Source of the DNA: an uncultured archaeon
GTDB taxonomy: Archaea; Asgardarchaeota; Thorarchaeia; Thorarchaeales; Thorarchaeaceae
Assembly: GCA_964458565.1 (NCBI GenBank)
Contig: CAYWJO010000010.1
Span: forward strand, 20,473-84,472
Length of the DNA stretch: 64,000 bases
Direction of reading: 5' to 3'
The translations under genes and the position numbers were made by a program. The notes beneath the pieces were generated by a model. It did no database searches, was not told where the DNA came from, and saw only the letters and a list, made by a program, of their open reading frames with translations. Positions 6,209 to 35,599 of this stretch are shown here, one piece after another (position 1 is the stretch's first letter; each line of letters opens with the position of its first letter).

Positions 6209-6356
6209 TTGATATCCTCCAATTCAATTCATCATCTCAGTTGTGCCTTTTAAGTCTGGACCAAGTCATAGAACGTTCGCTTTAGAAACAGATATAGAGG
6301 CTTGATGATGGCTAACGCCAGACATTGATTGAAAGCACGTGCAAGGAGTCCATTTT

Positions 6357-7586: not shown

Positions 7587-7597
7587 AAGTGAGTATG

Positions 7598-7648
7598 TGT
7601 ATGAAGCAAGGAATAGGGTCCGCCCCCACCCTATTCCTGCTTCGTGCA
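7598..7648 (+). terminator. Long stem-loop 3' of the GGR gene
   Basis: tgtatgaagcaaggaatagggt / accctattcctgcttcgtgca with one bulge; G-U pairs favour the + strand. Confidence 0.55.
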
Positions 7649-7927
7649 TCTATATTCGATGCATATGCCCGGCTGTCTTCGTAGAAACGTTCAGAACGTT
7701 ATCACGAATAAGCCCCTCAGGATAGAAGGGCAAGTATACAGTTGACACAAAGCATATAAAAATATGTCATATCGTGAAGTGATATAAAGTTAGTATGTTG
7801 GAAGTGAGTTATCAAGTTTGGTTATCTCAATTCCGCATTCATACATTTCAAGTAAACTTGTGTAAGGCGATGAATTTATCTATCTTGAAAGTACTGCGAA
7901 CTTGGAGCTATTGAGGGTGATAGTAAA

Positions 7928-8941: not shown

Positions 8942-8961
8942 ATCATCTTGAATTGGAGTGA

Positions 8962-9894
8962 GTGATATTGACCCAAGTAGGAAAAGCAGAGAGTATTTTC
9001 GACAAACTAGGGATTGATATTTCGGATAAACGAATGAGAGTACTGGCTTCCATTCTTGTTCTTGAAGAAGAAGTTGGGACTATGTTTAGCTTTGAAGAAA
9101 TTTACAAGAAACTTAGAGAGATTGAAGGTAAGCACCCTGGAAAAAAACCCCTGATATACAGATATCTAACAACCTTGGAAGAGAGCGGTTTTATCGAAAT
9201 AAACAGATATGGATACCGCCATGAGTATCGAAGTGATTTTCACAGAATCCAAAGAGCATTTGAGAATATCAAAAAAACAAGAATCAGAGATTTGGAAGAA
9301 AAAAGAAACGGATTGAGAGATCTAAAAGATTTCCTTTTAAAGATTGATTTGAACGATTTGTCCTCAACTTTGATCCAGGATTTGACAGGCTCAAAACCTC
9401 AGATGAAACCTAGATATGCATTGGGGCCGGAGAATGTTTATTGGTTAATAGATAGAGAGATTTATGCTAAAGCCGGAAGTGGAGATATAATCCGTTTTGT
9501 ACTTGATTGGGTCAATCCCGAAATGGAAGCCAAGTTAAATCGTCAGGAATGGGGAGATCAGCTTCTTAGTAAGAACATAGAAATCAAAACACTATTGCAA
9601 AAGGAATCCCTGATGGATGATAGCGTATATGCACGTCGAGCAACACCTTATAGAGAATGGAAGAAGAAGGGATGGAAAATTGGTGTACGAATAAGACTTG
9701 ATTCAAGCAAATCGTATCAGTTTGCATCCTTGAATGAGGACGGTATAGTGCTTATCGTCGCAGAGAATCCGCTAACAGCTACATGGATTCCAAGAGAAAC
9801 AAATCCCTCCCTCGTACAGGATGCAATAGAGAGATTTGATCTGGATTTTGAGAATTCTTTCGACCCCGAAAGCATATTTTCTGATAGGGGGTAA
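8962..9894 (+). CDS. TrmB-like regulator, copy 2
   Basis: KKPLIYRYLTTLEESGFI HTH, coiled coil, YQFASLN...PLTATW. Confidence 0.7.
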   Translation: MILTQVGKAESIFDKLGIDISDKRMRVLASILVLEEEVGTMFSFEEIYKKLREIEGKHPGKKPLIYRYLTTLEESGFIEINRYGYRHEYRSDFHRIQRAFENIKKTRIRDLEEKRNGLRDLKDFLLKIDLNDLSSTLIQDLTGSKPQMKPRYALGPENVYWLIDREIYAKAGSGDIIRFVLDWVNPEMEAKLNRQEWGDQLLSKNIEIKTLLQKESLMDDSVYARRATPYREWKKKGWKIGVRIRLDSSKSYQFASLNEDGIVLIVAENPLTATWIPRETNPSLVQDAIERFDLDFENSFDPESIFSDRG

Positions 9895-9895
9895 G

Positions 9896-10864
9896 ATGGT
9901 GCTGCTTGATAATCTACCAAGAAATCAGCTCGATGCATTAGAAATTGTTCTTTCATCGAGTGACATGCAAATTCTAAAAGCCCTCTTCAATGCACAGTCT
10001 TCTATTCATAAATATCTAACCTGTGATGAATTGAATGCATACATATCGGATAAGGACGAAAAAGAAGTTACAAAAACTTGGATTTACCAATGCTTGAATA
10101 GTCTTGAGAATCGAGGTTTCATCCATGTTGACATTTTAGCAAACCCAAGAAAATACATGGCTTCAGCTGAAACTGTAAGTGTAGGACTTGATAAAGCTTT
10201 AAGAAAAAGAATGCGAGAAATAGATTACGAACTGGAAACCCTTGAGCAGAGTATCACAGAGCTGAAATCTTTAGATAGTACACTCGTAACATCCCGTTTC
10301 AAAAACATATTAACTGGACGGAGTGAGATAAAGGAGTATACAATTATTGTAACCTCAGACGATTTCCGAAAAGCTATTACCACACAACTTCTTGCGAATA
10401 CCAAGAAAGGTGATGTGCTTCATATTATTGATAGACCTGCACTTCTGAGAGATAGCATTGGTCAGAGTGGAATTGCTGAAAAAATGATAGTTGAGTTTGT
10501 GAATAAAGGAGGGATATTGAAAACCTTACTCCTTGTCAAAGATATACAATCTGAACTCGAAATGTTGTTGAATTTTTTGGGGAATATTAGAGATTCGTTT
10601 TTGGAGGGTCTGGCATCAAATAGAATGGAAATCAAGATATTGAATCACAGAGCCAACACGTACCGATTTCTATCCTTGAATAACGAGAAGATGATTTTGA
10701 TCCTCACAGACTCGATTTGTCCAGATAAAGCGATTCTATTTGATAGAGAGGACAATTCCATTTTATTCGATGATGCGTTAAAGAATTTTAATGAGCTGTT
10801 TGAGAAGGGCAAGAATATCTCAGAAATGATGATGAAAATGGACCAGGAGCCCTCATTGCCTTAG
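9896..10864 (+). CDS. TrmB-like regulator, copy 3
   Basis: TKTWIYQCLNSLENRGFI..NPRKY HTH, YRFLSLN; ATG at 9896 follows a GGGGG RBS and lies 1 nt after the upstream stop. Confidence 0.7.
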   Translation: MVLLDNLPRNQLDALEIVLSSSDMQILKALFNAQSSIHKYLTCDELNAYISDKDEKEVTKTWIYQCLNSLENRGFIHVDILANPRKYMASAETVSVGLDKALRKRMREIDYELETLEQSITELKSLDSTLVTSRFKNILTGRSEIKEYTIIVTSDDFRKAITTQLLANTKKGDVLHIIDRPALLRDSIGQSGIAEKMIVEFVNKGGILKTLLLVKDIQSELEMLLNFLGNIRDSFLEGLASNRMEIKILNHRANTYRFLSLNNEKMILILTDSICPDKAILFDREDNSILFDDALKNFNELFEKGKNISEMMMKMDQEPSLP

Positions 10865-11932
10865 TTATTGGTCGATTATCCAATCCTTAACTTTGGATAA
10901 ACTTAGAAAGATATCACTACATACTGCTTCAAAGTCTTCATAAGAGCCATATTCCCCTCCAGCGGCATACGGATGGCCCCCTCCATTGAACTGTTTTGCC
11001 ACAATGTTACAGAGAACCGTATCCTTACCTCTCCTTAGACCTAACATTCCACCCTGACTCAGAGTTATAACCAAATCAGCAACCGGTAATATGGTATCAT
11101 CGTCTAGCCTCAAATTTGATTCATCCGATAGAAATGTCCCTAAGTCAGTTGTTGTCACGCCATGTGGAAGTTCAACAATGCGAACTAAGCGATCGTGGAT
11201 GATTTCGTCACAATGTCCGCTCAAAGCTTTCCTCATTTTCTTCGATTTTTCTTTCCGATAATACTTGACTCTCTGATCTAGCAAACTATCTTTGAACCGT
11301 TTCGTTTCAGTATCCCAAAGACCAGACATTCCATCATCAGCGAGTTTGAATAGAAGGGGTTTGAGAATCTCAGTGAGGTCCTCTTTTCTATCCATGGCAT
11401 TGAATCGAAGAACAGAAAGAGCATCTGTCAAGGCACTTGCGGAATCAATTTCTCTGAGATTAAAATCAGTATCGTGAGCGATTGATGCAAGTTCAGAAGA
11501 TATTTCATCATTCGCCATGAGAACCTTATGTGATATTTCAGCTGCACAATGATCGTGATTCACCTTAAGGATAGGTTTGTTTCCTAGTGATTGAATTGCT
11601 GCTACTGCTTTCTTGGACCATTGATGATGATCTAGCCATACAATACGACATCCCTGAGAGATCGCTCGTTCCAAGGAGCTGATAATGAAATCAAGAACTA
11701 AATCATCCATTCCCAAATCTGTGATTATTATGAGCGTGTTTCGTCTCAAAGCAACTGCAGCGAATACATCTTGAAAATTCCCATAATCTGTCAGAATAAC
11801 ATCAAATTCGAGGCTTCGTGAGAGAGCGTAACGTCTTACAATAGCTGATGAAGCCAGGCCATCAACGTCTTTGTCATGGGAGATTGAAAGAAGAGAATCC
11901 ATCTTCCGTTTCAATGTTTTCTCAGTACTCAT
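10865..11932 (-). CDS. DHH/DHHA1 family phosphoesterase
   Basis: SHDKDVDGLASS, ITDLG, WLDHH, GGGHPYAAG. Confidence 0.9.
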   Translation of the reverse strand: MSTEKTLKRKMDSLLSISHDKDVDGLASSAIVRRYALSRSLEFDVILTDYGNFQDVFAAVALRRNTLIIITDLGMDDLVLDFIISSLERAISQGCRIVWLDHHQWSKKAVAAIQSLGNKPILKVNHDHCAAEISHKVLMANDEISSELASIAHDTDFNLREIDSASALTDALSVLRFNAMDRKEDLTEILKPLLFKLADDGMSGLWDTETKRFKDSLLDQRVKYYRKEKSKKMRKALSGHCDEIIHDRLVRIVELPHGVTTTDLGTFLSDESNLRLDDDTILPVADLVITLSQGGMLGLRRGKDTVLCNIVAKQFNGGGHPYAAGGEYGSYEDFEAVCSDIFLSLSKVKDWIIDQ

Positions 11933-12028
11933 TGTAGAAATTTCATGAAACAGCCCCTTTTTTTGTCTTGTCCTTAAGTACTATGTTTCGAAAGTGTTTT
12001 CTGGAAGGACATACGGCAATGACTTAGC

Positions 12029-13927
12029 ATGAATCCTCAGAGTAAAAGAGAAGAAAATGCTAAACTTCTCAGCGGAAATGAAGCTATCGCTTATGGAGCA
12101 ATGGAAGCTGGAGTAGCGTTTTGTACATCATACCCAGGAACACCTTCAACTGAAATCATGGAAACTCTAATGGTAAATGCGGAAGCTTTTGCTCTTTACA
12201 CAGAGTGGAGCACGAATGAAAAAGTAGCCCTCGAAGCATCAGCAGGTGCAAGTTGGATGGGTATACCAAGTATCTGTTCTATGAAATCACTTGGGCTTAA
12301 TGTTGCTGCAGATTTTCTATTAAATCTCAACCTATCTGGTTCCGGACCTGGTGGACTTGTAATAGTCGTATGTGATGATCCAAGGGGTCATAGTTCAAGC
12401 AATGAACAAGATTCGAGATTCTATGCAAAAGCAGCCAAACTACCCCTAATCGAACCCACTGATTGTCAAGAAGCAAAAGATGTCATGCCATTTGCATTCG
12501 AATTATCACGAAGACATCAGATTCCAATAATTGTCAGAAGCACTACGAGATTGAGTCATTCAAGAGGATTAGTACGTTTAGGGGATATCGAGAAACATAA
12601 AATCCAAGCAAATCCATCAATTCCGGATAATCTGTTCAACGTACCCAATCCGCACATCAAACACAAGGATTTAGATGAGAAACTCGGTGATGTTCTTCGT
12701 GAGTTTGAGAACTCAGAATTCAACTCATGCTCGGAGGAGGATGGTAGTAATTTAATCATCATTGCATCAGGTATTGGGTACAGGTATGCCATGGAAGCAA
12801 TTGAGATACTTGGTATTAACTCAACGAGAGTCGTTAAAATTGTAACAACATATCCGTTACCTGAGAAGATAATACAAGATTGGTGGAATGGTAATAAGAA
12901 AATACTCTTCATAGAAGAGATTGACCCATTCGTAGAAGAACAGGTTCTCGCGATCTTCGCTGAATTTGAGTGGTTAAATTCTGTAAAGGAGCCAGTTGAA
13001 TTCTATGGGAAGAGAAATGGTTTCGTGCCTTTCTATGGGGAATTGAATACGGATATAGTCGTCGACTCCATAGCTAAGGTCTTAGATATCCAAATGCCAT
13101 TCAGAGATGATGTTGGGAATGCACGGAAAGAAGCTAAAGACCTTTTGATTGAAAGACCACTTACGTTCTGTGCTGGTTGTACACATCGAAATGTCTACTA
13201 TGCAATCAAGAGAGTAAAACACAGATTGAAAGACAAAATCATAGTTGCCGGAGATATCGGATGTTATTCATTGGGAGTGTTTTATGATCAAACGATGGAT
13301 ACGATGCAAGCAATGGGATCAGGTATTGGAGTCGCAACAGGGTTGGGTCAACTTCAACGATTTGATCAAGATAACAAGATTCTCGCTGTGGCAGGTGATT
13401 CAACATTCTATCATTCCTGCATCCCGGGTCTTATCAATGCGAGACATAAGAATGCAGACCTCACCTTCTTGATACTTGATAACTCGACTACAGCCATGAC
13501 GGGTTTTCAAGAGCATCCAGGTTCAGCCACACAAAGTAAGAATTCCAAAATAGTAAGTATTGCTAAGATCGTGAAGGCAATCGAGCCGGATTTGTTTGAA
13601 GAGGTTAACAGTGAGGAAATAGATTCCTTAATTGACTCAATTCATAGGGCAGTAGATCAACCAGGGTTAAAGGTTTTACATCTGAAAGGAATTTGCAGAC
13701 TCGAAGCTGCTAGAAGTGAATCTATCATTAGGAAGGTAGAAATTGATACTGGTAATTGTAAAGGGTCAACATGCAAGATATGTGTGAGTGACTTTGGATG
13801 TACAGGATTACGATGGATAAATGAAGATGACAGGCCTGAAATCGTTGATCATATCTGCATCCATTGTGGAGCATGTATCTCAGTTTGTCCAAATAATGCA
13901 ATAAGACGAGAGGAGGGTATTCGTTGA
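12029..13927 (+). CDS. iorA: Indolepyruvate:ferredoxin oxidoreductase alpha subunit
   Basis: LSGNEAIA, YPGTPSTEI, NEKVALE, FCAGCTHR, GDIGCY, GDSTF, LDN..TAMTG, C-terminal ferredoxin Cys clusters. Confidence 0.92.
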   Translation: MNPQSKREENAKLLSGNEAIAYGAMEAGVAFCTSYPGTPSTEIMETLMVNAEAFALYTEWSTNEKVALEASAGASWMGIPSICSMKSLGLNVAADFLLNLNLSGSGPGGLVIVVCDDPRGHSSSNEQDSRFYAKAAKLPLIEPTDCQEAKDVMPFAFELSRRHQIPIIVRSTTRLSHSRGLVRLGDIEKHKIQANPSIPDNLFNVPNPHIKHKDLDEKLGDVLREFENSEFNSCSEEDGSNLIIIASGIGYRYAMEAIEILGINSTRVVKIVTTYPLPEKIIQDWWNGNKKILFIEEIDPFVEEQVLAIFAEFEWLNSVKEPVEFYGKRNGFVPFYGELNTDIVVDSIAKVLDIQMPFRDDVGNARKEAKDLLIERPLTFCAGCTHRNVYYAIKRVKHRLKDKIIVAGDIGCYSLGVFYDQTMDTMQAMGSGIGVATGLGQLQRFDQDNKILAVAGDSTFYHSCIPGLINARHKNADLTFLILDNSTTAMTGFQEHPGSATQSKNSKIVSIAKIVKAIEPDLFEEVNSEEIDSLIDSIHRAVDQPGLKVLHLKGICRLEAARSESIIRKVEIDTGNCKGSTCKICVSDFGCTGLRWINEDDRPEIVDHICIHCGACISVCPNNAIRREEGIR

Positions 13928-14526
13928 GTGAATACAACATTCTTATTGCAGGTGTAGGAGGTCAAGGAAACCTCCTTCTCGGGAGAGTCTTAGCAGATGC
14001 TGCTGCAGATGATGGATATCGCCCTGTTATCGGTGAAACCTTTGGTGCAAGCAGAAGAGGAGGAACAGTCTATACTCATCTACGAATTGCGAAAAGCGAT
14101 TTAGGACCTCTGATACCTAGAGGGCGTCTGGATTTGCTAGTAGGGCTTGAACCTTTGGAAGCATTGAGAGCGAGTGTGAAATTCGCAGGACTAAATACAA
14201 CTGCAATTGTTGCAATTGAACCGGTTCAGAGCACAATCAGTCAATCAGGGGAAGTCGACTACCCAGATGTGAAGACCATCATTGATCACCTGAGGAAATT
14301 GTGCGGGAGAGTGGAACCTATTAACACCAAGGAAATTCTACAAACAATTGGAACCTATAGGGTGTTAAACACTCTCATTCTTGGCATAATTTCTGAGATG
14401 GAAATTACGCCGCTAAGAAGGGAAACAATTCAGTCATCCCTGGATAAAACCATTGGATTTCGAGGATTGAACAAAGAAGCATTTCTCGCTGGTGTTGAAG
14501 TAGTTGTAAAATCCAATAAAATTTGA
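13924..14526 (+). CDS. iorB: Indolepyruvate:ferredoxin oxidoreductase beta subunit
   Basis: ILIAGVGGQG, ETFGASRRGGTV, GLEPLEALR; overlaps iorA stop. Confidence 0.9.
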   Translation: MSEYNILIAGVGGQGNLLLGRVLADAAADDGYRPVIGETFGASRRGGTVYTHLRIAKSDLGPLIPRGRLDLLVGLEPLEALRASVKFAGLNTTAIVAIEPVQSTISQSGEVDYPDVKTIIDHLRKLCGRVEPINTKEILQTIGTYRVLNTLILGIISEMEITPLRRETIQSSLDKTIGFRGLNKEAFLAGVEVVVKSNKI

Positions 14527-14531
14527 TGTTT

Positions 14532-15521
14532 TTACATCCATGTTTCAAGTGTATCCTGAACGATGAAGAACTGTTTCCAGAGCCCAACAAGGGTATCTAG
14601 TGTTGATTCTGTACGCGTATCACCTAAAACAGGAGCCAATAATCGACTCACTCTTGATGGAACTGGGGAATTCAATGATGTATCGATGTGACTAACAGTC
14701 AGGTAGTTACCGTAATCAAAGACCGCTCTGGCTGCTAGGAATTCAGATCGTTCCGAATACGAAAAGCCTCGAGCTTTCAAAAGTCCCTCAAGACCCCCGA
14801 ATCTTCTCAGGAGAACTACTCCTTTTCGGGGACCAATACCTGGCACGCCTTTTTTATGAAAATCACATCCGCATACTATTGCCAAATCTCGAAGCTCCTC
14901 GAGCTCTAAATCAATGACTTCCTGAATTCCTTGAAGAGTGACTTGCTCCATCTGGTTCTTTGACAATTGCAAACTGCGGATGACATGGGGACTTCCAAAG
15001 AGTATCGCATCCATGTCATTGGACGCCACAGAACCAACAAGCCCCTCACGGCACATAACAGCACACATCAACTCTGCTTCAGAGGATGCTGATACTACAG
15101 GAACACCAATTGAAGAGCATATATCCTTGAGATGTTGTGCCGCAAAGTAGGTTCTCAATGCAGGACTATTATTCAGAGGTTCAGCAATCTCTTGATTAAA
15201 TGGATCACCTTCTTTTTTGTACCAACGATAGAGACTGTTAGCGATATGAATCAGTTCTGGGTCTGCATCCCGCTTCAATGTTTCAGGCGGACCATCGAAT
15301 ACAAAGATAGGAATGATATGTTTCTTCAGAGACGTACGTATAAGACTTAACCCAATGGATACATGAGTCAGAGGTATACGTTCTCTAACACGTGTAACTC
15401 TGTTGATTGTTGACATTCTACGAATCATATAGTTGAACGCATCTATAGCAATTTTATTCATTGTCAATTCTGAAATATCAACCCAACGCCAAGGAATGAA
15501 GTCCCAACCCTTCACTCCCAA
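14532..15521 (-). CDS. FEN1/XPG-family 5' nuclease (divergent) with C-terminal PIP box
   Basis: MGVKG, IAIDA, FVFDG, SEAE, SNDMDAILFG, CGCDF, GVPGIGP; C-terminal QDTLETWM. Confidence 0.88.
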   Translation of the reverse strand: MGVKGWDFIPWRWVDISELTMNKIAIDAFNYMIRRMSTINRVTRVRERIPLTHVSIGLSLIRTSLKKHIIPIFVFDGPPETLKRDADPELIHIANSLYRWYKKEGDPFNQEIAEPLNNSPALRTYFAAQHLKDICSSIGVPVVSASSEAELMCAVMCREGLVGSVASNDMDAILFGSPHVIRSLQLSKNQMEQVTLQGIQEVIDLELEELRDLAIVCGCDFHKKGVPGIGPRKGVVLLRRFGGLEGLLKARGFSYSERSEFLAARAVFDYGNYLTVSHIDTSLNSPVPSRVSRLLAPVLGDTRTESTLDTLVGLWKQFFIVQDTLETWM

Positions 15522-15523
15522 TA

Positions 15524-16240
15524 CTAGAACCTCCGTAATGGTCGGATGCCAAACTCACCCATTCTTACCATGAGACTCTCAGGTTTTTTCAAAGTTGGTG
15601 ATCTTTCAATCTTAATCTGGAAAGTGTAACCGTGATTTTCAAAAGCGGTTATTCGAATCATGGAATCAATTGAGTGCTCCAGAACATTTCCCCCTACAGG
15701 TCGTGATGCACCAGTTATAGGATCTCGGGATGAATGGTCAGTGATTACAAGATGACTTGGAGAATCAATCATTGTTTCTCTTAGAGTTTCAAGCATGGAA
15801 AACAGGCGACGTTGCCTTTTCTTACTACTAGGAGGCAAATTGAGATTGAGAGCACCTGTAAGACTATCAAGCACAATTATCGAGTAATTTGTAGCAACAG
15901 ATGCAATAATTTCCTCAATATCATCCAAACCCATGACATTTGCTACCATCAATTTCTGTAATGCATCTTCATTAGCATCACCCATAAGGCGTCTTGCAAG
16001 TGTTGGTTTGAAGTTGGTTCCTGAATCAAGATACACAGTCAGTTTACCGGAACGAATACATCCAACTGCAATCTCATGAGAGAGAATTGTCATTGGTGAT
16101 CTCATTGGACCGTGAATAAGTGATATTTGTCCCGGGATGAGAACTGAACTAAACAAATCGTTTAGCTGCGGCGGGTAGAGTATTATTTCTGATTGCAAGT
16201 CAATTGAAAATTCATCAAGTGTCGTCATTTTGCTCTTCAA
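15524..16240 (-). CDS. RecA/RadA-fold paralog lacking Walker A Lys (probably inactive)
   Basis: PGQISLIHGPMRSPMT (degenerate P-loop), VYLDSGTNF, IIVLDSLT, PVGGNVLEHSID. Confidence 0.8.
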   Translation of the reverse strand: MKSKMTTLDEFSIDLQSEIILYPPQLNDLFSSVLIPGQISLIHGPMRSPMTILSHEIAVGCIRSGKLTVYLDSGTNFKPTLARRLMGDANEDALQKLMVANVMGLDDIEEIIASVATNYSIIVLDSLTGALNLNLPPSSKKRQRRLFSMLETLRETMIDSPSHLVITDHSSRDPITGASRPVGGNVLEHSIDSMIRITAFENHGYTFQIKIERSPTLKKPESLMVRMGEFGIRPLRRF

Positions 16241-17180
16241 CTCGTTTTATTGGTAATTTCCGCTCTAGGATGAGGCTTCGTAGTTCATTCGAATGCAAAC
16301 TTGCGGAGGTCAACCCTGTTGCAAGTTCCTTTGGGACAAGTGCAGAAATCCCAGGTTTTGATGGAAAAATGGTTGTTCCAGGAGCCCATGAATCAATCAA
16401 CAGACTGACTGAATTTGGATCTGTCATATATTCATAATCAGTGAAAGTTATGCCAAAACGGGCATCTATGAAAGGTAATGCAAGAATTGCTTTCGTAAGT
16501 GTATGTGAGCATACTTTCGGACAATGCGTTTCAGGTAATTCAAGAATGTTCACAACATCTTCGATTGGAACCAGACTTGTATCAACGACAAGAGCGTCCA
16601 TATCATTAAGATGAGTTAGAGAAACAGACCACTCAACTCGTTGCTGAAATATCTCAATGATGCTATTATGGGCCCCCAAGGGAATGTGTAGTGCCTTTAG
16701 TTTGCTCGCAAGTTGGTCTACATACACCCATAACTCATCATCACTGATAGAATCAATGCCTCTTGCGGCCATGGAAGTATCTAATGATAACTTGTGATTG
16801 AACCCCTCATTTAAGCGGACCACAATTTGGTTAGGGTTCCGTACAACTGCACACAAGATAGTTACAGACGCTGTACCGACAATCGAAAAAAGCAATCCAT
16901 TTTCTAAGCCTATGATGAAAACTGTTACACTCAAAAAAATAGTTGCAGTCCAACCAAGAACATTGGTAATCATTTTCACAGGTTCATTGAACATTGATGA
17001 TCCTGCAATTCGAAGTACACCGAGAGTGACTAGAAAGACTAGTATCAATGGTATATTATTTCCTAGTCTATAAGCAATTACAATAGAGTTTACAGAAGTG
17101 ATTAGCTGTGTCCCCAATGTGAGTGTAATTGCCCCAATTACTGCATACTTGGCTATACGAAAGATTGTTCCTCCGAACAT
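16215..17180 (-). CDS. Membrane protein, about 4 N-terminal TM helices plus soluble domain, unknown function
   Basis: Four hydrophobic segments in the first 112 aa; overlaps both neighbours. Confidence 0.75.
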   Translation of the reverse strand: MFGGTIFRIAKYAVIGAITLTLGTQLITSVNSIVIAYRLGNNIPLILVFLVTLGVLRIAGSSMFNEPVKMITNVLGWTATIFLSVTVFIIGLENGLLFSIVGTASVTILCAVVRNPNQIVVRLNEGFNHKLSLDTSMAARGIDSISDDELWVYVDQLASKLKALHIPLGAHNSIIEIFQQRVEWSVSLTHLNDMDALVVDTSLVPIEDVVNILELPETHCPKVCSHTLTKAILALPFIDARFGITFTDYEYMTDPNSVSLLIDSWAPGTTIFPSKPGISALVPKELATGLTSASLHSNELRSLILERKLPIKRVEEQNDDT

Positions 17181-17869
17181 TTCGAAACCCCCTTGATTGA
17201 TTCGCTGATAGCGAGGCGAGTGACTTTCGGTAGTCCGTCGCTTTTCAGAACCTGAATCGCTATCTGTGTATTATTTATTGTATCATTAATTTCAGTGCGA
17301 TAGCTTCCATGTGGACGAAGAAGTTGAAGGTCGATGTCAACCCATTTTCTAAGAGCATCATGGAAAACCGGTTTGGGCCCTTCAGAATCAAGAGTTCGAC
17401 ATTCACTAGTGCACAGAATTGATATTTTTCTTGAGGTGACAAGTCCAGCTAAATATGGAAGGACATCTTCAACCATCTCTCGTCCCCAGAGCAGAGGGTC
17501 ACGTCGAGCCATATCAAGGACTCGAGTAATTGTGTCAATTATTACAAGAGATGTCGTATCATCTATCTCGCTCTTGAGGTTAGTTATGGCATCATACGTT
17601 TCTGAACTTCCCTTTGTGAGAATTATCACGATGTTTGAAGAATTACCATTATATAGTGCAACTAAATCCCTTAAGCGCTGAATGAAGTTTACTTTGAAAT
17701 CAGTGCATATCCAGATTACATGCGAGTTTCTACTTTTTATTGCAGCTGCTTGCATGGCTAACAAAGTTTTTCCTGAACCTGAAGCACCCCATAGATGAAT
17801 AAATCCTTGAACACCTAAATATTTCAATAAATCTGATTCTTGAGATAGAGAAGAATCAGAGTTTCGCAT
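17153..17869 (-). CDS. RadB-like RecA-family ATPase
   Basis: IHLWGASGSGKT, VIWICTD, LVIIDTIT; no N-terminal HhH domain. Confidence 0.85.
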   Translation of the reverse strand: MRNSDSSLSQESDLLKYLGVQGFIHLWGASGSGKTLLAMQAAAIKSRNSHVIWICTDFKVNFIQRLRDLVALYNGNSSNIVIILTKGSSETYDAITNLKSEIDDTTSLVIIDTITRVLDMARRDPLLWGREMVEDVLPYLAGLVTSRKISILCTSECRTLDSEGPKPVFHDALRKWVDIDLQLLRPHGSYRTEINDTINNTQIAIQVLKSDGLPKVTRLAISESIKGVSKCSEEQSFV

Positions 17870-17875
17870 CAGAAT

Positions 17876-19555
17876 CTATTCCTCCTCTGATTTCTCAACC
17901 TTGTCTTTAATCTCTTGCAGATGGATCTCGGTTTTCATCTTTATAACATCATCAGCAATCAAATCAGTTTGAATAGTTTCTCTTGCTTTACGATGGCGTC
18001 GCGGAATAGTTTCTGGTTCCCTAGGAGTTGATTCTGAAGTCGTGTCTTCTGAAGTTCTGACGACATCTTGTGTTGAGTCTGCTATAATTGAAATTTCTTC
18101 TAATCCATCTTCTTCATTTGAATCAGTCAAATCCTGAAGAACAGAATCATATTCTCCCTTGATTTCCTCGTCGGACTCGGGGTCAGGTTCTTCTACCGTT
18201 GGGGAATATTCCGCTTCAGGAATTGACTCGGCTAAAGCATCAGTGAGCTCTTCACTAACATGGTGCATACTCCAATTATTGAGCACATCATCAACTGTGT
18301 CCTTGACTTGGGGGCTTAGAACCCCCGAGTTAAAGAGGACTAGGCTTAAACTAGTCAGATGTGTCACTACCTCATCTCCAGAAAGTGCCGCTTCAGTGTG
18401 TCCAGTCAGGGCAGAGTATGCTAGAGCAAGAGATTCTTCCTCACCATCCTCGAAATTCACTTCTAGGAACTGGAACAACCCTAGAAATTTGGACAACCCC
18501 TTATCAGCTGTGAAAGGAGTATCTTTAGGTGGATGTAGTCCAGGGGAGAGACGAACACATTCATCTAAAACAATAGAAGCATAATGTACTGATTCGTTTA
18601 CATCTCCGTTAGAGATAGACTCTACCGAAGCCCCAAAAAGTGTTGGAATAACGAAATTCAATTCATTGATAACATTTAGTTGCTCCTTGTTTTGATGTAC
18701 GGTTTCCTCAATCCGTTTCAAATCACCGATACCAGACAACTGCATAGATTCAGCTTCTCTTGATTCTTTGAAAATCTCAATTTGTCTCTTGGATATATAC
18801 GAAAAATATGCTGTAAGTATAACTGATGCGAGAAGTGTAATTCCAGCAATTGGAATTAGCCATGATTGTTCCAAGATTGCAAATAATATGGAAATAGTAG
18901 CGAGTAAAGTTAGAGAGATTCCTAGTAGTGAATAAAAGCTCATCAGCGTGGCTTTCTGAAGTGAGTCCCATTTCTCTGTATCAATCCCTTGTTTTAATTC
19001 AGGAAGTCTAGAACGAGCATCACTTGAACGAGCAATTGCGAATTCATTTATTGAGAGAATACGGTTCCCCTCGGTAATCCAAGAAAGGTCGTATGATGGA
19101 CGGACATCATTTGTAACAACATATACTGTACGGGTTTCATGAATCAAAGAGGTCTTGTTCTTTTTTAGAGCTGCTTTGCTGGGAGCTAACAGGCGTAATG
19201 GAATTTTACCCCATACGGTCCGAATTGATTTCTCAACGAGTTGATCGTTTAATGATAGCTCATTCATGATTGACTCCAAAGGTCGATTAATGACATCCAG
19301 GACATGGGATTTCATACCTGCAGGACTTTTCCCAAATTTGGCACTTCTAAGATCTAGTACATGTACAACCTCAACATGAACTCCTCTTGTATCAGGAATT
19401 CCAGAGAATCTTATACCTATGCTAATTCCATTCTCCTTTTTTAATGTGTGATGACCACTTCGGTCTAGGATTCGTATGATATCATAGTCCTTGGCAGTTG
19501 TTGTGTCTGTATCTTCTATTTCAGTATGAGTTGTTTTTTCCTCACTCGCAACCAT
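17876..19555 (-). CDS. Membrane protein with central TM hairpin and acidic disordered C-terminus, unknown function
   Basis: Two TM segments at about aa 203-253; E/D-rich tail. Confidence 0.75.
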   Translation of the reverse strand: MVASEEKTTHTEIEDTDTTTAKDYDIIRILDRSGHHTLKKENGISIGIRFSGIPDTRGVHVEVVHVLDLRSAKFGKSPAGMKSHVLDVINRPLESIMNELSLNDQLVEKSIRTVWGKIPLRLLAPSKAALKKNKTSLIHETRTVYVVTNDVRPSYDLSWITEGNRILSINEFAIARSSDARSRLPELKQGIDTEKWDSLQKATLMSFYSLLGISLTLLATISILFAILEQSWLIPIAGITLLASVILTAYFSYISKRQIEIFKESREAESMQLSGIGDLKRIEETVHQNKEQLNVINELNFVIPTLFGASVESISNGDVNESVHYASIVLDECVRLSPGLHPPKDTPFTADKGLSKFLGLFQFLEVNFEDGEEESLALAYSALTGHTEAALSGDEVVTHLTSLSLVLFNSGVLSPQVKDTVDDVLNNWSMHHVSEELTDALAESIPEAEYSPTVEEPDPESDEEIKGEYDSVLQDLTDSNEEDGLEEISIIADSTQDVVRTSEDTTSESTPREPETIPRRHRKARETIQTDLIADDVIKMKTEIHLQEIKDKVEKSEEE

Positions 19556-29449: not shown

Positions 29450-30168
29450 ATCATAACCTCCTGTATCTCCAGGTTTCTTTGATATCCCACAATATACGGG
29501 AGTGGTTCGAGAGATTCGAGCCATTCAATGAATTCACGCACTACTTTCCTTGAGTACTGCCTTGTAGAGAGTAGAGACCTGAGAACAGATGTTGACACTC
29601 CAATCAGGTGATTTAGTGCTACATACCGCGCCTCATCTGGAATTGACTGATACCAGTCCATGGTCACATAACCGGATTCACCCGCAAGATACTCAGGCCA
29701 CTCAAATGACCACTCACCATCTATTGGTTCATGATTTAGAGCATCTAGCATTATTTCCAACCATGAGTTCCACTTTAAGATGGCAGAACATACCTTCCTT
29801 GATAGTTCCCCCATGGTCTCAGACTCAAAGATCAAGGTAATCCTACCTGGACCACAGTCTGAGACCGCTCCATCAACTATACCCAGTTTCTTCCCAGATG
29901 TAAGAAGCGACAATCCAGTCACAAACCCTGGAATATCACAGGGCATATGTGATGATACATCGAAGTCTACGAATCTCTCGAAGGACTCCAGAATACTACT
30001 TCTTAGCCCTACCACAAGCTTCAATCTCGGACCGATATCCAATTCCGCGGACAATAAAATCCGGTCCGAATTAGTAACTAGGCTCTGGAGATAAAATGTA
30101 ACTTCCTTCGGTTCACACTGAAGGTCAGATTCGATCCAATCAGGCCAGAGCTTTGACTGTTTGTGCAC
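29446..30168 (-). CDS. Hypothetical protein, first gene of the operon
   Basis: 240-aa ORF with AGGTGA RBS before the GTG start. Confidence 0.7.
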   Translation of the reverse strand: MHKQSKLWPDWIESDLQCEPKEVTFYLQSLVTNSDRILLSAELDIGPRLKLVVGLRSSILESFERFVDFDVSSHMPCDIPGFVTGLSLLTSGKKLGIVDGAVSDCGPGRITLIFESETMGELSRKVCSAILKWNSWLEIMLDALNHEPIDGEWSFEWPEYLAGESGYVTMDWYQSIPDEARYVALNHLIGVSTSVLRSLLSTRQYSRKVVREFIEWLESLEPLPYIVGYQRNLEIQEVMI

Positions 30169-30294
30169 TCAGTTTCACCTTGGCTAGTACCACCTCGTTC
30201 AGGGGTTTAGCCTTGTCTAGAAGTGGGGATAATAGATATAACCGATATAAAATGAAAAATTGATGCTAATAGAACCCCCTAAACACTTTATGAA

Positions 30295-30324
30295 GGTTAT
30301 AAATCCCTTTGATTTGTTATAACA
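30295..30324 (-). promoter_or_regulatory. Putative BRE/TATA promoter of the recombination operon with adjacent palindrome
   Basis: Minus strand AAAGGGA-TTTATAA; perfect palindrome TGTTATAACA at 30315-30324. Confidence 0.4.
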
Positions 30325-30401
30325 TTATCATAGACGAGTTATGATTTGTTTTTTGTTCAGGAAGCAAACCCCTTTACCATGAGAGAATGCAAATTTCTCT
30401 C

Positions 30402-32753
30402 CTAGACCCCGCCTCGCTTCTTTAACATTATATCTCTTGCTTCACTATACATGAGATCTGAGAGAACCGTGAACATATCAGCGACACCCTCACCTGTCTT
30501 TGCACTGCTCTCCATATAGAGAAAGCCATTGCTCTCTGCCCAATCACGAGCTTCCTGCGCGGAAATCATACGGTCTGGTAAATCGGTTTTATTACCTACA
30601 ACAATTATTGGGACACGATGGCCAACAGATTCATCAGCTTCTTCAACCCACTTAACCAGTTCAGCAAATGACCTTCGTCGTGTAACATCAAATACCAGAA
30701 TAACACCTGCGGCTCCAGAATAGTACATCTTTCTCACAGCCTGGAAACGAGCCTGACCTGCTACGTCCCAAACTTGGAGTTTTATCCCGACTGAGTTATC
30801 CTGATCTTCGGGGGATATATGAGTAAGCTTGACTGCGAATTGAGAGCCAATAGTAGTCTTATAATCACGCTCGAAAGTTCCAGTGACATATCGATTTACA
30901 AGCGTGGTCTTCCCAACTGCACCCTCTCCCGTGATCATGCACTTGAATAAGAACATGTAGGCATCATCACTAAGATCAGGATGTTTAGGCTTCTTAGGAC
31001 GACTACGAATCTCTTCAATTTTGGCACTCTCAACACTCTCATGCTCATAGACTGGAGGTTCAATAACTGCAGAATCTAATGAAACATCAGAAACAGAATC
31101 TGGAATAATATCAGTAGCTGGTGGTGCTGTTACCATTGGTGCAATATCTTCCTCCTCAGGGAGTGTATGATGACTAATGATTTCACTTGAACTAAAGAGG
31201 TCATCCAGAAGTCTTTCAGCTTCACGTAGAGTTTCGGTTGTCTTATCATCAGTCGGAGCGGCAACTTGTTCAGTCGAAGAGGAGAGTGTTGAAGTTGCAT
31301 CAACTGAAGTTTCCTTTGCTGGAGCAAATAGCGGGGCTACGGTGTCCTCTTGGTCATCCGCCCTGAAGCTTACTGGAGCAAGATGTGCAGGTGCAGCAGT
31401 GGTATGGCCCTCTTGCACGAGTATCGCAGTCTCAGGAGTTGTGACTTGTTTAACAATTCCTTCTTCATCAGTCCACATCAATACAATGGGGCGAATAATG
31501 ACTGTACCCTCTTCCTTTGGTGTAAGCTCAATCTCTATACTCTTCTGTTCACTAGGTCCCAAGTCAAATTTAATCTGCTCTGGTACAACATTCATGTTGT
31601 CCTTCGGAAACCAGTATATCTTCCCGGTCACTCCAGAAACTGGTTCCTCAGTCACGTTTCTGAGTGTGAGCCTTCCTCGGAGATTGGACCCTGCTTTAGC
31701 TTCTTGGCTAACATCAAATTTAGGAATGACATGGTAGAGCCCTTGGATTACCTTGAGGGGACCTCCAGAGACACCGACGAGAACCTCCTTGCGGTCATCG
31801 CCGCCAGCGTCACCTACACTTATCGAGAGAATCTTCGATCCTACATCGACAGTTGCAAGTTGCTTCAAGTCAGCCATATACATATTGTAGTAGATTACCT
31901 TATAATCTGATGTGGCAACGATGATCTCGTCCATGTGATCCGCATTGACTTCTGCCATTCGTACAAACTGCGCATTAATTCCTTCAATCTTCGTGAAAAG
32001 GTCAAGTCTGCTTTCTTCATTCCTGAAGATTCGAACAGTCCCATCATTGGTTACTACTGCCAGCTCAGACTTACGGTCTCCAAGAACATCACCAGCACCA
32101 ATAGAGATGACTGGACTTGGCAACGTGATTACTTGAACTTCGTCAACGCTGGAGTTCTTAACTTTGAAAACTCTAAGTGTCTTGTCGCGGTTTCCTGTAA
32201 CTATCTCGTCTACTTCATCACCAATTGTGTCACATGTACCGATAGTTATTGGCATGTCATCAAGTTTGTGCCTGATATACTCTGTAATCGTGTTTTGGTT
32301 ATCCATTTTGAAAATCCGGAGTGTAGAGTCACTTCCACCAGCAAGAATCTCGTTTTTCCCATCACCTGTGATATCAGTCACCTGTACCGTTGTGACGAAT
32401 CTGTCAACGGGGTATTCACCAAGTAATTCAAACCGCCCACTCATAGCGTAGCGATACACCTGGAGTGTGCCATCAACGCCTGGAGATTCACTTCCTCCAA
32501 GACTGCGCCCAACGATTATTTCCATTTGACCGTCATTGTTAGCATCTTCGATTCTTATAGAAAGAATACTTCCCTCAAGTATACATTGTGCAAGCAAACG
32601 AATCTCGGCTTGATTGGCATCGTAAAGGCGTAGCACGCCATCCCTTCCACCTGTACACAATTCGGAGAGACCTGAACCAGTTACGTCGCCTACTGCAATC
32701 GCACTTGTGTTTAGGTCATCATCGACCTCAAAGAGTATTTTTGGTTTTACCAA
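30402..32753 (-). CDS. FG-GAP-repeat beta-propeller, beta-sandwich, acidic linker and Rab-like small GTPase fusion
   Basis: Seven (G)DxxGDxxxE-type repeats; GEGAVGKTT, YKTTIGSQF, KLQVWDVAGQ, YYSGA, NKTD, SAKTG. Confidence 0.9.
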   Translation of the reverse strand: MVKPKILFEVDDDLNTSAIAVGDVTGSGLSELCTGGRDGVLRLYDANQAEIRLLAQCILEGSILSIRIEDANNDGQMEIIVGRSLGGSESPGVDGTLQVYRYAMSGRFELLGEYPVDRFVTTVQVTDITGDGKNEILAGGSDSTLRIFKMDNQNTITEYIRHKLDDMPITIGTCDTIGDEVDEIVTGNRDKTLRVFKVKNSSVDEVQVITLPSPVISIGAGDVLGDRKSELAVVTNDGTVRIFRNEESRLDLFTKIEGINAQFVRMAEVNADHMDEIIVATSDYKVIYYNMYMADLKQLATVDVGSKILSISVGDAGGDDRKEVLVGVSGGPLKVIQGLYHVIPKFDVSQEAKAGSNLRGRLTLRNVTEEPVSGVTGKIYWFPKDNMNVVPEQIKFDLGPSEQKSIEIELTPKEEGTVIIRPIVLMWTDEEGIVKQVTTPETAILVQEGHTTAAPAHLAPVSFRADDQEDTVAPLFAPAKETSVDATSTLSSSTEQVAAPTDDKTTETLREAERLLDDLFSSSEIISHHTLPEEEDIAPMVTAPPATDIIPDSVSDVSLDSAVIEPPVYEHESVESAKIEEIRSRPKKPKHPDLSDDAYMFLFKCMITGEGAVGKTTLVNRYVTGTFERDYKTTIGSQFAVKLTHISPEDQDNSVGIKLQVWDVAGQARFQAVRKMYYSGAAGVILVFDVTRRRSFAELVKWVEEADESVGHRVPIIVVGNKTDLPDRMISAQEARDWAESNGFLYMESSAKTGEGVADMFTVLSDLMYSEARDIMLKKRGGV

Positions 32754-32934: not shown

Positions 32935-33714
32935 ATGTCCAAGCTTTCTGTTCGTAATCTCGTGAAATCCTTTGATAATGGAGAGGGTGCCAGGACAAAG
33001 GTGTTGGAAGGGATATCTTTTGATGTTCAGGAGGGCGAATTTCTGAGCATTTTAGGACCTTCTGGTTGTGGAAAAACCACACTCCTAAAAATCATAGCGG
33101 GTCTACTCGAACCTGATTCCGGAGAAATTCTGATTGATGACAAAAAAGTAGATGTTGGTCATAACAAAGTCGGATACATATTTCAACAAGAGTCATTGTT
33201 TCCCTGGAGAAGTGTAAGACAGAATATTGAATTTGGACTGCAGGTACAGCACACACCTCCTGAAACAAGAAAGAAGCTAGTTGACTCCATTTTAGAGCTT
33301 GTAGGGATGACAGATCTACAAGATAATCTACCCCATGAGATTTCCGGAGGTCAAGCAAGAAAAACTGAGATGGCTCGAAGTCTAGTCACATCACCAGAGA
33401 TACTAGTAGCAGATGAAGGCTTTTCAAATCTGGACGCACAGACAAGGAACTATCTCCAAGAAGAATTTCTCAGAGTGTGGAAAGAAACAGGATCTACAGT
33501 GGTCTTTGTTTCCCACAACGTTGATGAAACTGTGTTCATGTCAGATAGGATACTCGTACTTAGCAATATTCCAGCAAAAATCATTTCAGAATATGAGATT
33601 GATGTCTCGAGGCCAAGGGAGCGGGCTAGTGAGTCATGTCTTTCTTACCGAGCCAAGATTCTAGATGTTTTGAAAGTTGAACAAAGGAAAGCAATGGGAA
33701 CATATCAGGTTTAG
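32935..33714 (+). CDS. NitT/TauT-family ABC transporter ATP-binding protein
   Basis: GPSGCGKTT, YIFQQESLFPW, ISGGQ, ADEGFSNLD, VSHNVDE. Confidence 0.92.
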   Translation: MSKLSVRNLVKSFDNGEGARTKVLEGISFDVQEGEFLSILGPSGCGKTTLLKIIAGLLEPDSGEILIDDKKVDVGHNKVGYIFQQESLFPWRSVRQNIEFGLQVQHTPPETRKKLVDSILELVGMTDLQDNLPHEISGGQARKTEMARSLVTSPEILVADEGFSNLDAQTRNYLQEEFLRVWKETGSTVVFVSHNVDETVFMSDRILVLSNIPAKIISEYEIDVSRPRERASESCLSYRAKILDVLKVEQRKAMGTYQV

Positions 33715-34562
33715 ATCGATACAGCTTGTCTCCAATCAGTGAGTGAGCGTTCGATGAGCAGAAAGATGTAGCTTACAACAAATCCGACTACACCAATGAT
33801 TAGCATGGCACAGATTGTTTCCGCAGTTCGTCCCAATTGTTCCGTAACAAGAACGAGGTGACCTAGTCCTAAACCACCACCAATCATCTCAGCTGCAACC
33901 AAACACATCCAGCCTATTCCAAAACCTACTCGAAGGCCAACAAAAATTTCAGGACTGGCGGAGGGAATAACGATAGAGGCCAGGATTTGCCGCTCATTGG
34001 CTCCAAAAGTATGTGCTACATCGATGTGTACAGGCTCAGTTCGCTTTACACCAGCTGTTGTATTGATTAGAATAGGAAAGAACGCACCGATCCAGATGAT
34101 GAAAACCTGCGAACCCAAAAAATTAGCTTGGAACATTAGAATTGAAATTGGTATCCAAGCAATTGGAGGTATTGGCCGCATAGCTTCAACAACTGGTCCT
34201 AAGATTCCATCAACTAACCTGTAACGTCCTATTGCAATACCAAGGGGGATAGCTGTAATAGCGGCGATCACAAAACCAAGTGTTACTCGAAACATACTCA
34301 ATGAAGTATGTTCTAGTAAGGTCCGTCCTTCTGTATCACCCTCGATAGCTAGCTTGGCAAAAGCCTCAGCTATATCGAAAATGGTTATCGGTGATTGTAG
34401 GTGACGACTTGCAACATAAGCAATTAACTGCCACAATGTAATCAATATAATGACTGGCAGAATATATCGAGTGATAATTCGCTTGAGACGTTCAGTATCT
34501 CTTTCTCGGTTGTGAGACTCTTTTTGGGTACTAGGTTCTTCAGTCATTATCATGGACTTCAA
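33711..34562 (-). CDS. NitT/TauT-family ABC transporter permease
   Basis: RPIPPIAWIP, FFPILINT..GV, EAA-like loop, WMCLVAAEM. Confidence 0.92.
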   Translation of the reverse strand: MKSMIMTEEPSTQKESHNRERDTERLKRIITRYILPVIILITLWQLIAYVASRHLQSPITIFDIAEAFAKLAIEGDTEGRTLLEHTSLSMFRVTLGFVIAAITAIPLGIAIGRYRLVDGILGPVVEAMRPIPPIAWIPISILMFQANFLGSQVFIIWIGAFFPILINTTAGVKRTEPVHIDVAHTFGANERQILASIVIPSASPEIFVGLRVGFGIGWMCLVAAEMIGGGLGLGHLVLVTEQLGRTAETICAMLIIGVVGFVVSYIFLLIERSLTDWRQAVSI

Positions 34563-34606
34563 CTGAGCCCTCGTAAACTTACTTTTGTCTTTTTTCGTCT
34601 ATGTGA

Positions 34607-35599
34607 TTAGCATGAACATGTTGCGATAAGATAGGTTTCATCTAAGAAAACATCAAGAAAAGCATCCATGTCGGAAAGCTCCATTTCAACAAGCTCTTCT
34701 TCAATCAAGAATTGAAGATACATCCGAATGCCTGTTCGGTTTAAAATAGGATTGTAGATAATCCGGTTGAAAGCTGTTTCTACGGTGCTTTCATCCATGC
34801 CTAGCCAATCAGTAGCAATCTGAATTGATTCATTGGGGTGTGTTACAATCCATTCCTCTGCTCGCTGATGAATCTGCATTACCTTTTGAACCGTAACTGG
34901 TTTAGACTCAAGAAATGCATTTGATGAAGCTACAACACAACAAGGATGCCCAGGCCATATTTCACCAGAAAGGAGTAAAGGAACAGCTAACCCTTCAGCT
35001 TCAGCTCTTGAGGGAAATGGTTCCCAGGCGATGAATGCTGGTGCATTATCTGTGAGTGATATAGCCATGTTTTGAGGGCTTCTTTGTTCAGGATTTACAT
35101 CTTCAATGGTCAATCCCGCTTGATTGAGTGCAAGGCGAAGTAGGAAATTCTGTACTGTGGATGGACCAGGGTGATAGATAGTCTTGCCAACCAAATCGGA
35201 TACATCAGTTATGATTCCGTCATCAAAGAGGTCTTTCTTCACCATTAATGCGGACCCTTCAAAATTTACAGCTGCAAGAATAGTGACAGGTATTTCGGAA
35301 TTGATACCCAATGTCAAAGCAGGCGCAGCTCCAAGATACCCCATATCAATTTGATTAGCCTGGAAACCCCGCATTTCTTCAGCACCGTTGCCATATTCGA
35401 TCAATTGGACACTTAGGTTAACATCATCGAACCAGCCTTTATCTTTAGCAACCTTCAAAGCCAATTGATGAAGGTCCTGTGAGAGATATCCTATTCTAAC
35501 ATCAGGCGGCTCTGTATTGAAAGCAATAAAACCTGCAACAGCAAATGCCGCTACTCCCATAACAAGGACCAAGACGATGGCAGTACTTCTACGATCCAA
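34607..35599 (-). CDS. NitT/TauT (SsuA/NMT1-like) ABC substrate-binding protein
   Basis: N-terminal TM, VRIGYL, IDMGYLGAAPA, AWEPF, HPCCVV. Confidence 0.9.
   Translation of the reverse strand: MDRRSTAIVLVLVMGVAAFAVAGFIAFNTEPPDVRIGYLSQDLHQLALKVAKDKGWFDDVNLSVQLIEYGNGAEEMRGFQANQIDMGYLGAAPALTLGINSEIPVTILAAVNFEGSALMVKKDLFDDGIITDVSDLVGKTIYHPGPSTVQNFLLRLALNQAGLTIEDVNPEQRSPQNMAISLTDNAPAFIAWEPFPSRAEAEGLAVPLLLSGEIWPGHPCCVVASSNAFLESKPVTVQKVMQIHQRAEEWIVTHPNESIQIATDWLGMDESTVETAFNRIIYNPILNRTGIRMYLQFLIEEELVEMELSDMDAFLDVFLDETYLIATCSC

Follow-up and report, generated by a model that had tools for sequence, protein, structure and literature searches.

GTPases that resemble Rab, Arf and Rag proteins are encoded by the dozen in Asgard archaea. 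Asgard Rab-like proteins, Thor-Rab of Thorarchaeota included, do not carry a prenylated cysteine tail, and the cell membrane is, as far as is known, the only membrane of these organisms (Tran et al., 2024; PMC10933270). A term search of that paper yields only fusions with longin or roadblock domains, and no propeller. Here we describe a gene in which a Rab-like GTPase domain forms the end of a long polypeptide that begins with a seven-bladed β-propeller and continues with an immunoglobulin (Ig)-like domain and an acidic linker. The gene resides in a 64,000-nucleotide stretch of DNA, hereafter called the window, from an uncultured archaeon of the GTDB family Thorarchaeaceae (class Thorarchaeia; assembly GCA_964458565.1, contig CAYWJO010000010.1, positions 20,473 to 84,472 of the forward strand). 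A literature search on Asgard archaea or Thorarchaeota with BBSome, ITFG2, FG-GAP and propeller-GTPase returned no paper describing the fusion. The protein is a Rab-like GTPase of known type in a conserved architecture that has not been described previously.

The open reading frame extends from position 30402 to position 32753 of the window, exactly as given in a preliminary description that was made from the sequence and its translated reading frames, and lies on the minus strand. It encodes 783 amino acids, beginning with a TTG start codon at 32753 and ending with a stop codon at 30402-30404, and a Shine-Dalgarno-like sequence (GGAAGGT) is located approximately 8 nucleotides 5′ of the start. 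The proposed order of domains, in which a seven-bladed propeller is followed by a β-sandwich, an acidic linker and a GTPase with motifs G1 through G5, was borne out by the translation, by Pfam searches and by structure prediction with AlphaFold2 (AF2). Pfam matches that exceed the curated cut-offs were obtained for Ras (160 bits, residues 604-766), FG-GAP_3 (62.9 bits), Beta-prop_BBS7 (57.5 bits), BBS2_Mid (51.2 bits) and Itfg2 (38.7 bits). The FG-GAP (29.9 bits) and Roc models also match, and there is a weak match to ASH at residues 354-418. Neither a signal peptide nor a transmembrane segment was found by inspection of the translation and its hydropathy. The maximum 19-residue Kyte-Doolittle mean is 1.39, and the N-terminus (MVKPKILFEVDDD) is not hydrophobic. 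Because no segment is hydrophobic enough to serve as a signal peptide or transmembrane segment, and because the G domain needs GTP, we conclude that the protein is cytoplasmic.

The gene is genuine and strongly conserved among Asgard archaea of the Thorarchaeota type. Its architecture recurs in more than 120 non-redundant, full-length homologs (757-826 amino acids, 59-81% identity) on independent contigs of up to 3.2 Mb, and one of the genomes represented is SMTZ-45 from 2016. Where the source names of these homologs give a taxon it is mostly Thorarchaeota, and many names give none. The concern that the fusion might be an artefact of assembly, which had been raised when the gene was first noticed, is ruled out by this recurrence. 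When 301 genomes were sampled across the phylum, the N-terminal module was present at 62-70% identity, within an open reading frame of ~770 amino acids, in 75 of the 76 genomes of the same GTDB family. A sister family within the order has one copy, at 45% identity, and the fusion was not found in the other Asgard families of this sample, in which it thus occurs in Thorarchaeia-type genomes only. Within its lineage, the gene is single-copy and near-universal. An exhaustive HMMER search against 1.84 billion representatives returned just three close clusters, one of which is a 781-amino-acid ortholog (43% identical) that has kept its Ras domain. A survey of G domains among proteins of 430-1371 amino acids found this type of G domain only in the fusion family. 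Across 135 family members, mean column conservation is highest in the GTPase (0.90), followed by the propeller (0.82), the sandwich (0.76) and the linker (0.54), and the values for the three folded parts indicate that all of them are under purifying selection.

The most highly conserved part of the protein is the Rab-like GTPase domain (residues 599-783; 30405..30959, minus strand). Its G1 (GEGAVGKT), switch I (T633/T634), G3 (DVAGQ, including the catalytic Q667), G4 (NKTD) and G5 (SAK) elements are all invariant in the family. The RabF-like motifs quoted in the preliminary description are likewise present and invariant, and read IGSQF, KLQVW, RFQAV (RFQAVR when extended by one residue), YYSGA and LVFDVT. 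The consensus sequences of RabF1 through RabF5 are reportedly IGVDF, KLQIW, RFRSIT, YYRGA and LVYDIT. A Rab-type YxYLFK lead-in appears here as AYMFLFK (family consensus SYxYLFK), and the hydrophobic effector-binding triad of F639, W662 and Y677 is present and invariant. A sequence search of the PDB gave 773 matches, the best 60 of which are headed by a Rab from Thorarchaeota (7EZB, E 2.4e-46), with eukaryotic Rabs in all of the other 59 places (Rab14, 30, 25, 2, 5, 1, 4, 35, 11 and others), such that the nearest solved relatives in this set are Rabs and not Ras, Rho, Ran or Arf proteins. Together, the motifs, the Pfam match and this ranking confirm the original assignment of the domain. The basic tail KKRGGV contains no prenylatable cysteine, again as first reported, and the tails of other family members are also devoid of cysteine. 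We use the term 'Rab-like' rather than canonical Rab because a C-terminal cysteine motif for geranylgeranylation is absent.

The same genome yields 32 Ras-family matches, among which the nearest paralog of the fused domain is a free-standing GTPase of 182 amino acids. In a tree in which the only other sequences are in-genome paralogs, the fused G domains form one short-branched, slowly evolving group, with support of 95/99 for the main family and weak support when the divergent ortholog is added. Other multidomain small GTPases are also encoded by this genome. These are a 699-amino-acid Roc/Ras protein with a C-terminal Schlafen AlbA_2 domain (C25; L015:1086-3185:-), a 648-amino-acid Arf/Rag-like protein (C18; L014:754-2700:-), a 513-amino-acid protein with a C-terminal Ras domain (C44; L013:1511-3052:+) and a 406-amino-acid Ras protein (C6; L012:2030-3250:+). 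No Pfam match was obtained for the extra regions of these four proteins.

Residues 1-340 (31734..32753, minus strand) form a seven-bladed β-propeller of the FG-GAP class. An AF2 model that covers residues 1-455 and draws on an alignment of 28 family sequences has a mean predicted local distance difference test (pLDDT) score of 91.5 and a predicted template modelling (pTM) score of 0.87. The model contains 28 strands arranged as seven four-stranded blades (residues 6-336) and then a β-sandwich (residues 342-454). The number and build of the blades, the FG-GAP Pfam matches and the FG-GAP proteins among the HMMER neighbors are those of the FG-GAP/VCBS-type superfamily. Residues 127-148 of the propeller read DITGDGKNEILAGGSDSTLRIF. 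A motif scan revealed a sole canonical Dx[DN]xDG 'calcium-blade' motif (as defined by Rigden et al., 2011; PMC3123361), which is located in blade 2 as DANNDGQME (residues 70-78; 32520..32546, minus strand). The residues D70, N73, D74, G75 and E78 are invariant across the fusion family, and this blade may bind Ca2+.

The β-sandwich of ~110 amino acids had initially been likened to the GAE domain that follows the propeller in BBSome subunits. Such a sandwich is indeed present (residues 341-452; 31398..31733, minus strand), and has a pLDDT of 90.3 when modelled alone, but its identity as a GAE domain is not singled out. Foldseek ranks a TRAP subunit first (E 1.7e-6), followed by MG domains of complement, MSP domains of VAP and a CARDB domain; BBS9 takes rank 27, and the GAE domain of BBS1 is tied among many matches. 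The Pfam models GAE_BBS1 and BBS2_GAE do not match the fusion protein. These two models and BBS5 (PF07289) also gave no match in the organism's own 93%-complete genome, in a search that was run without a positive control. As modelled, the domain appears to be a generic Ig-like fold, for which a GAE reading would be allowed.

An acidic linker rich in proline, serine and threonine connects the sandwich to the G domain (146 amino acids, residues 453-598; 30960..31397, minus strand). Its composition (32 D+E, 15 P, 30 S+T) gives a net charge of -21. The linker varies in both sequence and length, and is presumably disordered or flexible. Two islands nevertheless stand out in its conservation track. 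One is an amphipathic-helix island at residues 507-521 (ETLREAERLLDDLFS, consensus ESLKAAExLLDQLFG; 31191..31235, minus strand), in which A512, E513, L515, L516, L519 and F520 are invariant and the hydrophobic residues are spaced by 3, 4 and 3 positions. We infer that this island forms a helix and has a function. The other is a basic, PKP-rich island immediately before the G domain (residues 576-592, SAKIEEIRSRPKKPKHP, consensus ES..V.EIRxRxPKPPRPG; 30978..31028, minus strand), with invariant residues S576, I582 and R585. In addition, most family members carry the motif SPFGPVVGTGFG (its GTG in at least 90% of them) at a site that corresponds to approximately residues 475-488 (31290-31330 in the window), where the protein from the window and its nearest relatives have APLFAPAKETSV instead. 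The combination of short linker motifs with a propeller and an ear-like domain suggests peptide-in-groove docking, either in cis or between molecules. When the N-terminal module and the G domain with GTP and Mg were subjected to complex prediction, a score of 0.00 was returned against a mark of 0.32, which is indicative neither for nor against docking.

The interpretation that we favor is that of a cytoplasmic, single-copy and lineage-specific multidomain Rab-like GTPase of Thorarchaeia, whose propeller-Ig module serves as a localizing anchor, which does not belong to an operon, and whose likeness to the BBSome and KICSTOR extends to the level of structural class. Taken as a whole, this interpretation seems reasonably likely to be correct. 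In such a protein, the propeller-Ig module would replace the prenylated hypervariable tail of eukaryotic Rabs as the targeting device, and would hold the switch at one specific partner or site, either by protein-protein contacts or by binding a peptide in a groove. As the tethered G domain cycles between GTP and GDP, it would recruit or release nearby effectors, which would bind the conserved Rab-type surface formed by F639, W662 and Y677. One candidate docking element, in cis or in trans, is the conserved helix of the linker. Because the fusion physically ties one archaeal switch to a partner-binding module, a partner of the propeller-Ig module would reveal what this Rab-like switch regulates.

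Several points weigh against this interpretation. The gene has no operon partner that would hint at a binding partner, a membrane-binding element or an effector. GTP binding and hydrolysis are predicted from the motifs. Lastly, the propeller ranks BBS2 and ITFG2 first among solved structures, and the family profile aligns with ITFG2 in a collinear manner over residues 5-151 (~150 residues), whereas integrins are not retrieved.

These last observations would be expected if the protein were a true relative of the BBSome and KICSTOR propeller scaffolds, that is, a proto-adaptor whose recruiting small GTPase is still in cis and was later separated in eukaryotes, as with BBS1 and ARL6. A Foldseek comparison with BBS proteins and ITFG2, which the preliminary description had called for, gives a mixed answer. 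BBS2, BBS9, BBS7, ITFG2 and BBS1 do lead the PDB matches (E 1.4e-17 to 1.4e-13), and integrin alpha, CRTAC1 and beta'-COP rank after them, but BBS2 and ITFG2, which match best, stand just 1-2 Z units above ordinary seven-bladed propellers, and the Z margin over those of CIAO1, COPI and RACK1 is 1-3 units. ITFG2, which is ~15% identical, also leads the solved proteins in sequence searches (E 7e-7 with the single sequence and 1.7e-8 with the family profile), and BBS7 and BBS2 are weaker. We considered whether this top match reflects specific kinship, and control searches weakened that reading. Large generic metagenomic FG-GAP proteins also exceed the Pfam cut-offs for BBS2_Mid, BBS1, Itfg2 and BBS7, and for two of three such giants ITFG2 is again the best FG-GAP-type match in the PDB. 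Beyond the family, the best HMMER matches (E 1e-30 to 1e-20) belong mostly to large FG-GAP proteins with many repeats; of four that were checked with Pfam two are giants, and the only one whose source is named comes from an Asgard archaeon. Bacterial FG-GAP proteins of the ESM Atlas with ASH, DUF11, TIG or FlgD-Ig domains fit the model at template modelling (TM) scores of 0.66-0.73, and the fit often spans both the propeller and the Ig domain. Descent from a common scaffold is also at odds with the unmatched GAE models, with the absence of a platform, coiled coil or solenoid, and with the restriction of the fusion to Thorarchaeia-type genomes. Because generic FG-GAP proteins pass the same cut-offs and, in two of three cases, match ITFG2 first, and because bacterial ones fit the model equally well, we place the likeness at the level of propeller class and of design logic, wherein a propeller scaffold operates with a small GTPase. 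This likeness is best treated as analogy, since common descent is not demonstrated, and we regard specific descent shared with the BBSome and KICSTOR scaffolds as possible but improbable. A 2026 preprint refers in a single phrase to a 'BBS7/ITFG2' structural cluster with Asgard and eukaryotic proteins only, which is compatible with kinship and does not establish it, and the text of a paper cataloguing eukaryotic signature proteins (PMC12962969) does not mention BBS, ITFG2 or propellers. The bacterial likenesses could alternatively be taken to indicate an extracellular, adhesin-like FG-GAP/CARDB protein, or a chimera created during assembly. A feature-based search of a protein-language-model atlas gave scores below 0.9 for a mix of VCBS, BBS2 and BBS1 clusters, in which bacterial VCBS/FG-GAP fragments are closest (0.88) and all serve as leads only, and the sandwich does resemble CARDB and MG domains. 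However, the protein has no signal peptide or transmembrane segment, it carries a fused GTPase domain, and its architecture is identical on more than 120 independent contigs, some of megabase scale. This explanation is contradicted by the data and merits virtually no credence.

The main functional rival to the localizing-anchor interpretation is a sensor-regulated signalling GTPase in the style of Roco proteins or large Rabs, in which the propeller-Ig module would receive an input (for example Ca2+ via the DANNDG blade, or a ligand or peptide) and would control the nucleotide state or output of the G domain in cis. The invariant canonical motif in blade 2 fits such a role, the genome encodes other multidomain Ras/Roc-like GTPases such as the 699-amino-acid protein with Roc and Schlafen AlbA_2 domains, and the conserved linker islands could mediate autoinhibition. 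However, only one of the seven blades carries a canonical calcium motif, and no dimerization (COR-like) or kinase-type output domain is present. We consider this arrangement unlikely, albeit deserving of attention. The gene might instead be the functional head of the adjacent recombination or DNA-handling operon (15 genes; 14532..30168, minus strand). As noted in the preliminary description, it has the same direction as that operon and is directly upstream of it; the next gene is at 29446-30168, across a gap of 233 bp. However, this gap is an AT-rich spacer with its own TATA-like box (TTTATAA; 30169..30401, minus strand), and comparison with the loci of two other Thorarchaeota (L011 and L008) refutes the linkage. 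The gene order that is kept in L011, and largely in L008, consists of a divergent block for a substrate-binding protein (SBP), a permease and an ABC ATPase, the fusion gene, convergent PORgamma and PORalpha/beta genes that abut the fusion stop codon, a DHH gene, three paralogous genes of unknown type and a geranylgeranyl reductase (GGR) gene, with no operon. In the window, the same blocks are found in the same order and orientation, with SBP-permease-ABC at 32935-35599 and POR-DHH-GGR resuming beyond the operon at 6339-14526 (25-80% protein identity, gene by gene). The operon thus represents 15.6 kb of inserted DNA, placed exactly between the fusion gene and POR gamma, and the two operon end genes that were tested have no match in L011 or L008. 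Since the insertion occurred at a convergent junction, the adjacency of fusion gene and operon is accidental, and a role as operon head is very hard to credit.

From its sequence context, the recombination operon looks like an inserted cassette, and the fusion gene probably stands alone and is transcribed on its own. A stand-alone gene offers no operon partner as a clue to function. Scans for sigma-70 and terminator consensus sequences were uninformative because these consensus sequences are not suited to an archaeon. In the genome that carries the divergent ortholog, only the DHH gene remains near the fusion gene. Three tandem paralogs of 310-342 amino acids adjoin the DHH gene in several Thorarchaeota (7928-10864 in the window; L011:13010-15946), with 24-37% identity between genomes and no match to a Pfam family. 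A small GTPase gene is located next to DHH, a few kilobases from the fusion gene, in two other genomes (a 177-amino-acid Ras-type protein at L008:13110-13643 and a 319-amino-acid Arf-type protein at L009:10794-11753), and none was seen at that position in the window.

The fusion is accompanied in its genome by a 333-amino-acid FG-GAP-class propeller paralog (G000:C1:114773-115774; L004:2274-3275:+) that is likewise cytosolic, as it has no signal peptide, and that matches Beta-prop_BBS7 with 45 bits. Similar proteins of ~340 amino acids occur alongside the fusion in many of the sampled Thorarchaeota genomes. The best PDB sequence matches of this paralog are to SF3B3, and are weak. By analogy with ITFG2 and KPTN, it is a candidate propeller partner. 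The nearest ESM Atlas cluster to the fusion's propeller is a 559-amino-acid Asgard family that also has no signal peptide and also matches ITFG2, BBS7 and BBS2, from which we conclude that Asgard archaea hold several cytosolic FG-GAP-class propeller families. Proteins of this type (556-559 amino acids; L001:2607-4277:+ and L002:1952-3631:-) come from a different Asgard family than the fusion; they are cytosolic propeller proteins that match Beta-prop_BBS7 with up to 90 bits, have ITFG2 as best PDB match and possess a helical C-terminal region. A gene for a DUF11 (Ig-repeat) protein of ~720 amino acids adjoins the propeller gene in both genomes examined (L001:282-2456 and L002:3774-5933). It is conceivable, although we think it doubtful, that these cytosolic propellers (the fusion, the 333-amino-acid paralog and the 559-amino-acid type) represent the prokaryotic stock that gave rise to the BBS1/2/7/9 and ITFG2/KPTN scaffolds of eukaryotes, and that the fusion preserves an original adaptor-GTPase pair. 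If so, it would be a molecular fossil from the beginnings of GTPase-controlled membrane adaptors. A specific relationship of the propeller to the BBSome or KICSTOR would bear on the origin of GTPase-recruited membrane adaptors, for which the fusion at present offers an analogy only.

Comparison with known systems serves to delimit what is distinctive about the protein. ITFG2 (PDB 9v6e, 9o5a), a KICSTOR subunit, has neither an Ig domain nor a GTPase, and forms a heterodimer with KPTN on SZT2; C12orf66 is a further KICSTOR partner, and the complex is linked to GATOR1/Rag. The BBSome subunits BBS1, BBS2, BBS7 and BBS9 (PDB 6vbu, 6voa, 4v0m), which assemble with BBS4, BBS5, BBS8 and BBS18, contain a coiled coil, a platform and helical C-terminal domains, none of which is found in the fusion protein, where only the low-complexity linker and the G domain follow the sandwich. 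Moreover, the GTPase of the BBSome, ARL6, is Arf-like and a separate protein, whereas that of the fusion is Rab-like and in cis. Protocoatomer proteins of vesicle coats and of the nuclear pore complex scaffold have a propeller followed by an α-solenoid, whereas the fusion has no helical repeat region (residues 1-455 are all-β, and the rest is linker and G domain). The original suggestion of a single-chain coat plus GTPase is not supported in that form, since a protein without an α-solenoid, platform or coiled coil does not have the architecture of a coat; the resemblance is one of analogy, and homology is not shown. In eukaryotic large Rab and Roc GTPases (Rab44/45/46-CRACR2A; LRRK2 with WD40 and Roc), a small-GTPase domain is likewise part of a long protein with interaction domains, and the Rab domain is C-terminal. 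The partner domains in those proteins (EF-hand or coiled coil; kinase and COR) are unrelated to those of the fusion, such that no homology is implied.

Prokaryotic proteins that combine an FG-GAP/VCBS propeller with an Ig domain (ASH, DUF11, TIG or FlgD-Ig) share with the fusion both the propeller class and the order of propeller then Ig, with the structural fits given above extending over residues 1-440/455, and they are also its closest relatives by HMMER outside the family. Several carry domains of secreted or surface type (dockerin, flagellin, polysaccharide export), and many are multi-repeat giants. None of those examined has a GTPase, whereas the fusion protein carries one and is cytoplasmic. 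On the GTPase side, the closest counterparts are Thor-Rab (PDB 7EZB, 7EZD and 7EZE) and the free-standing Rab-like proteins of ~182 amino acids from Thorarchaeota, which are of the same lineage and similarly have no prenylatable cysteine. Unlike these, the G domain of the fusion forms the end of a 783-amino-acid chain, in which it is preceded by a propeller, an Ig domain and a leash of 146 amino acids.

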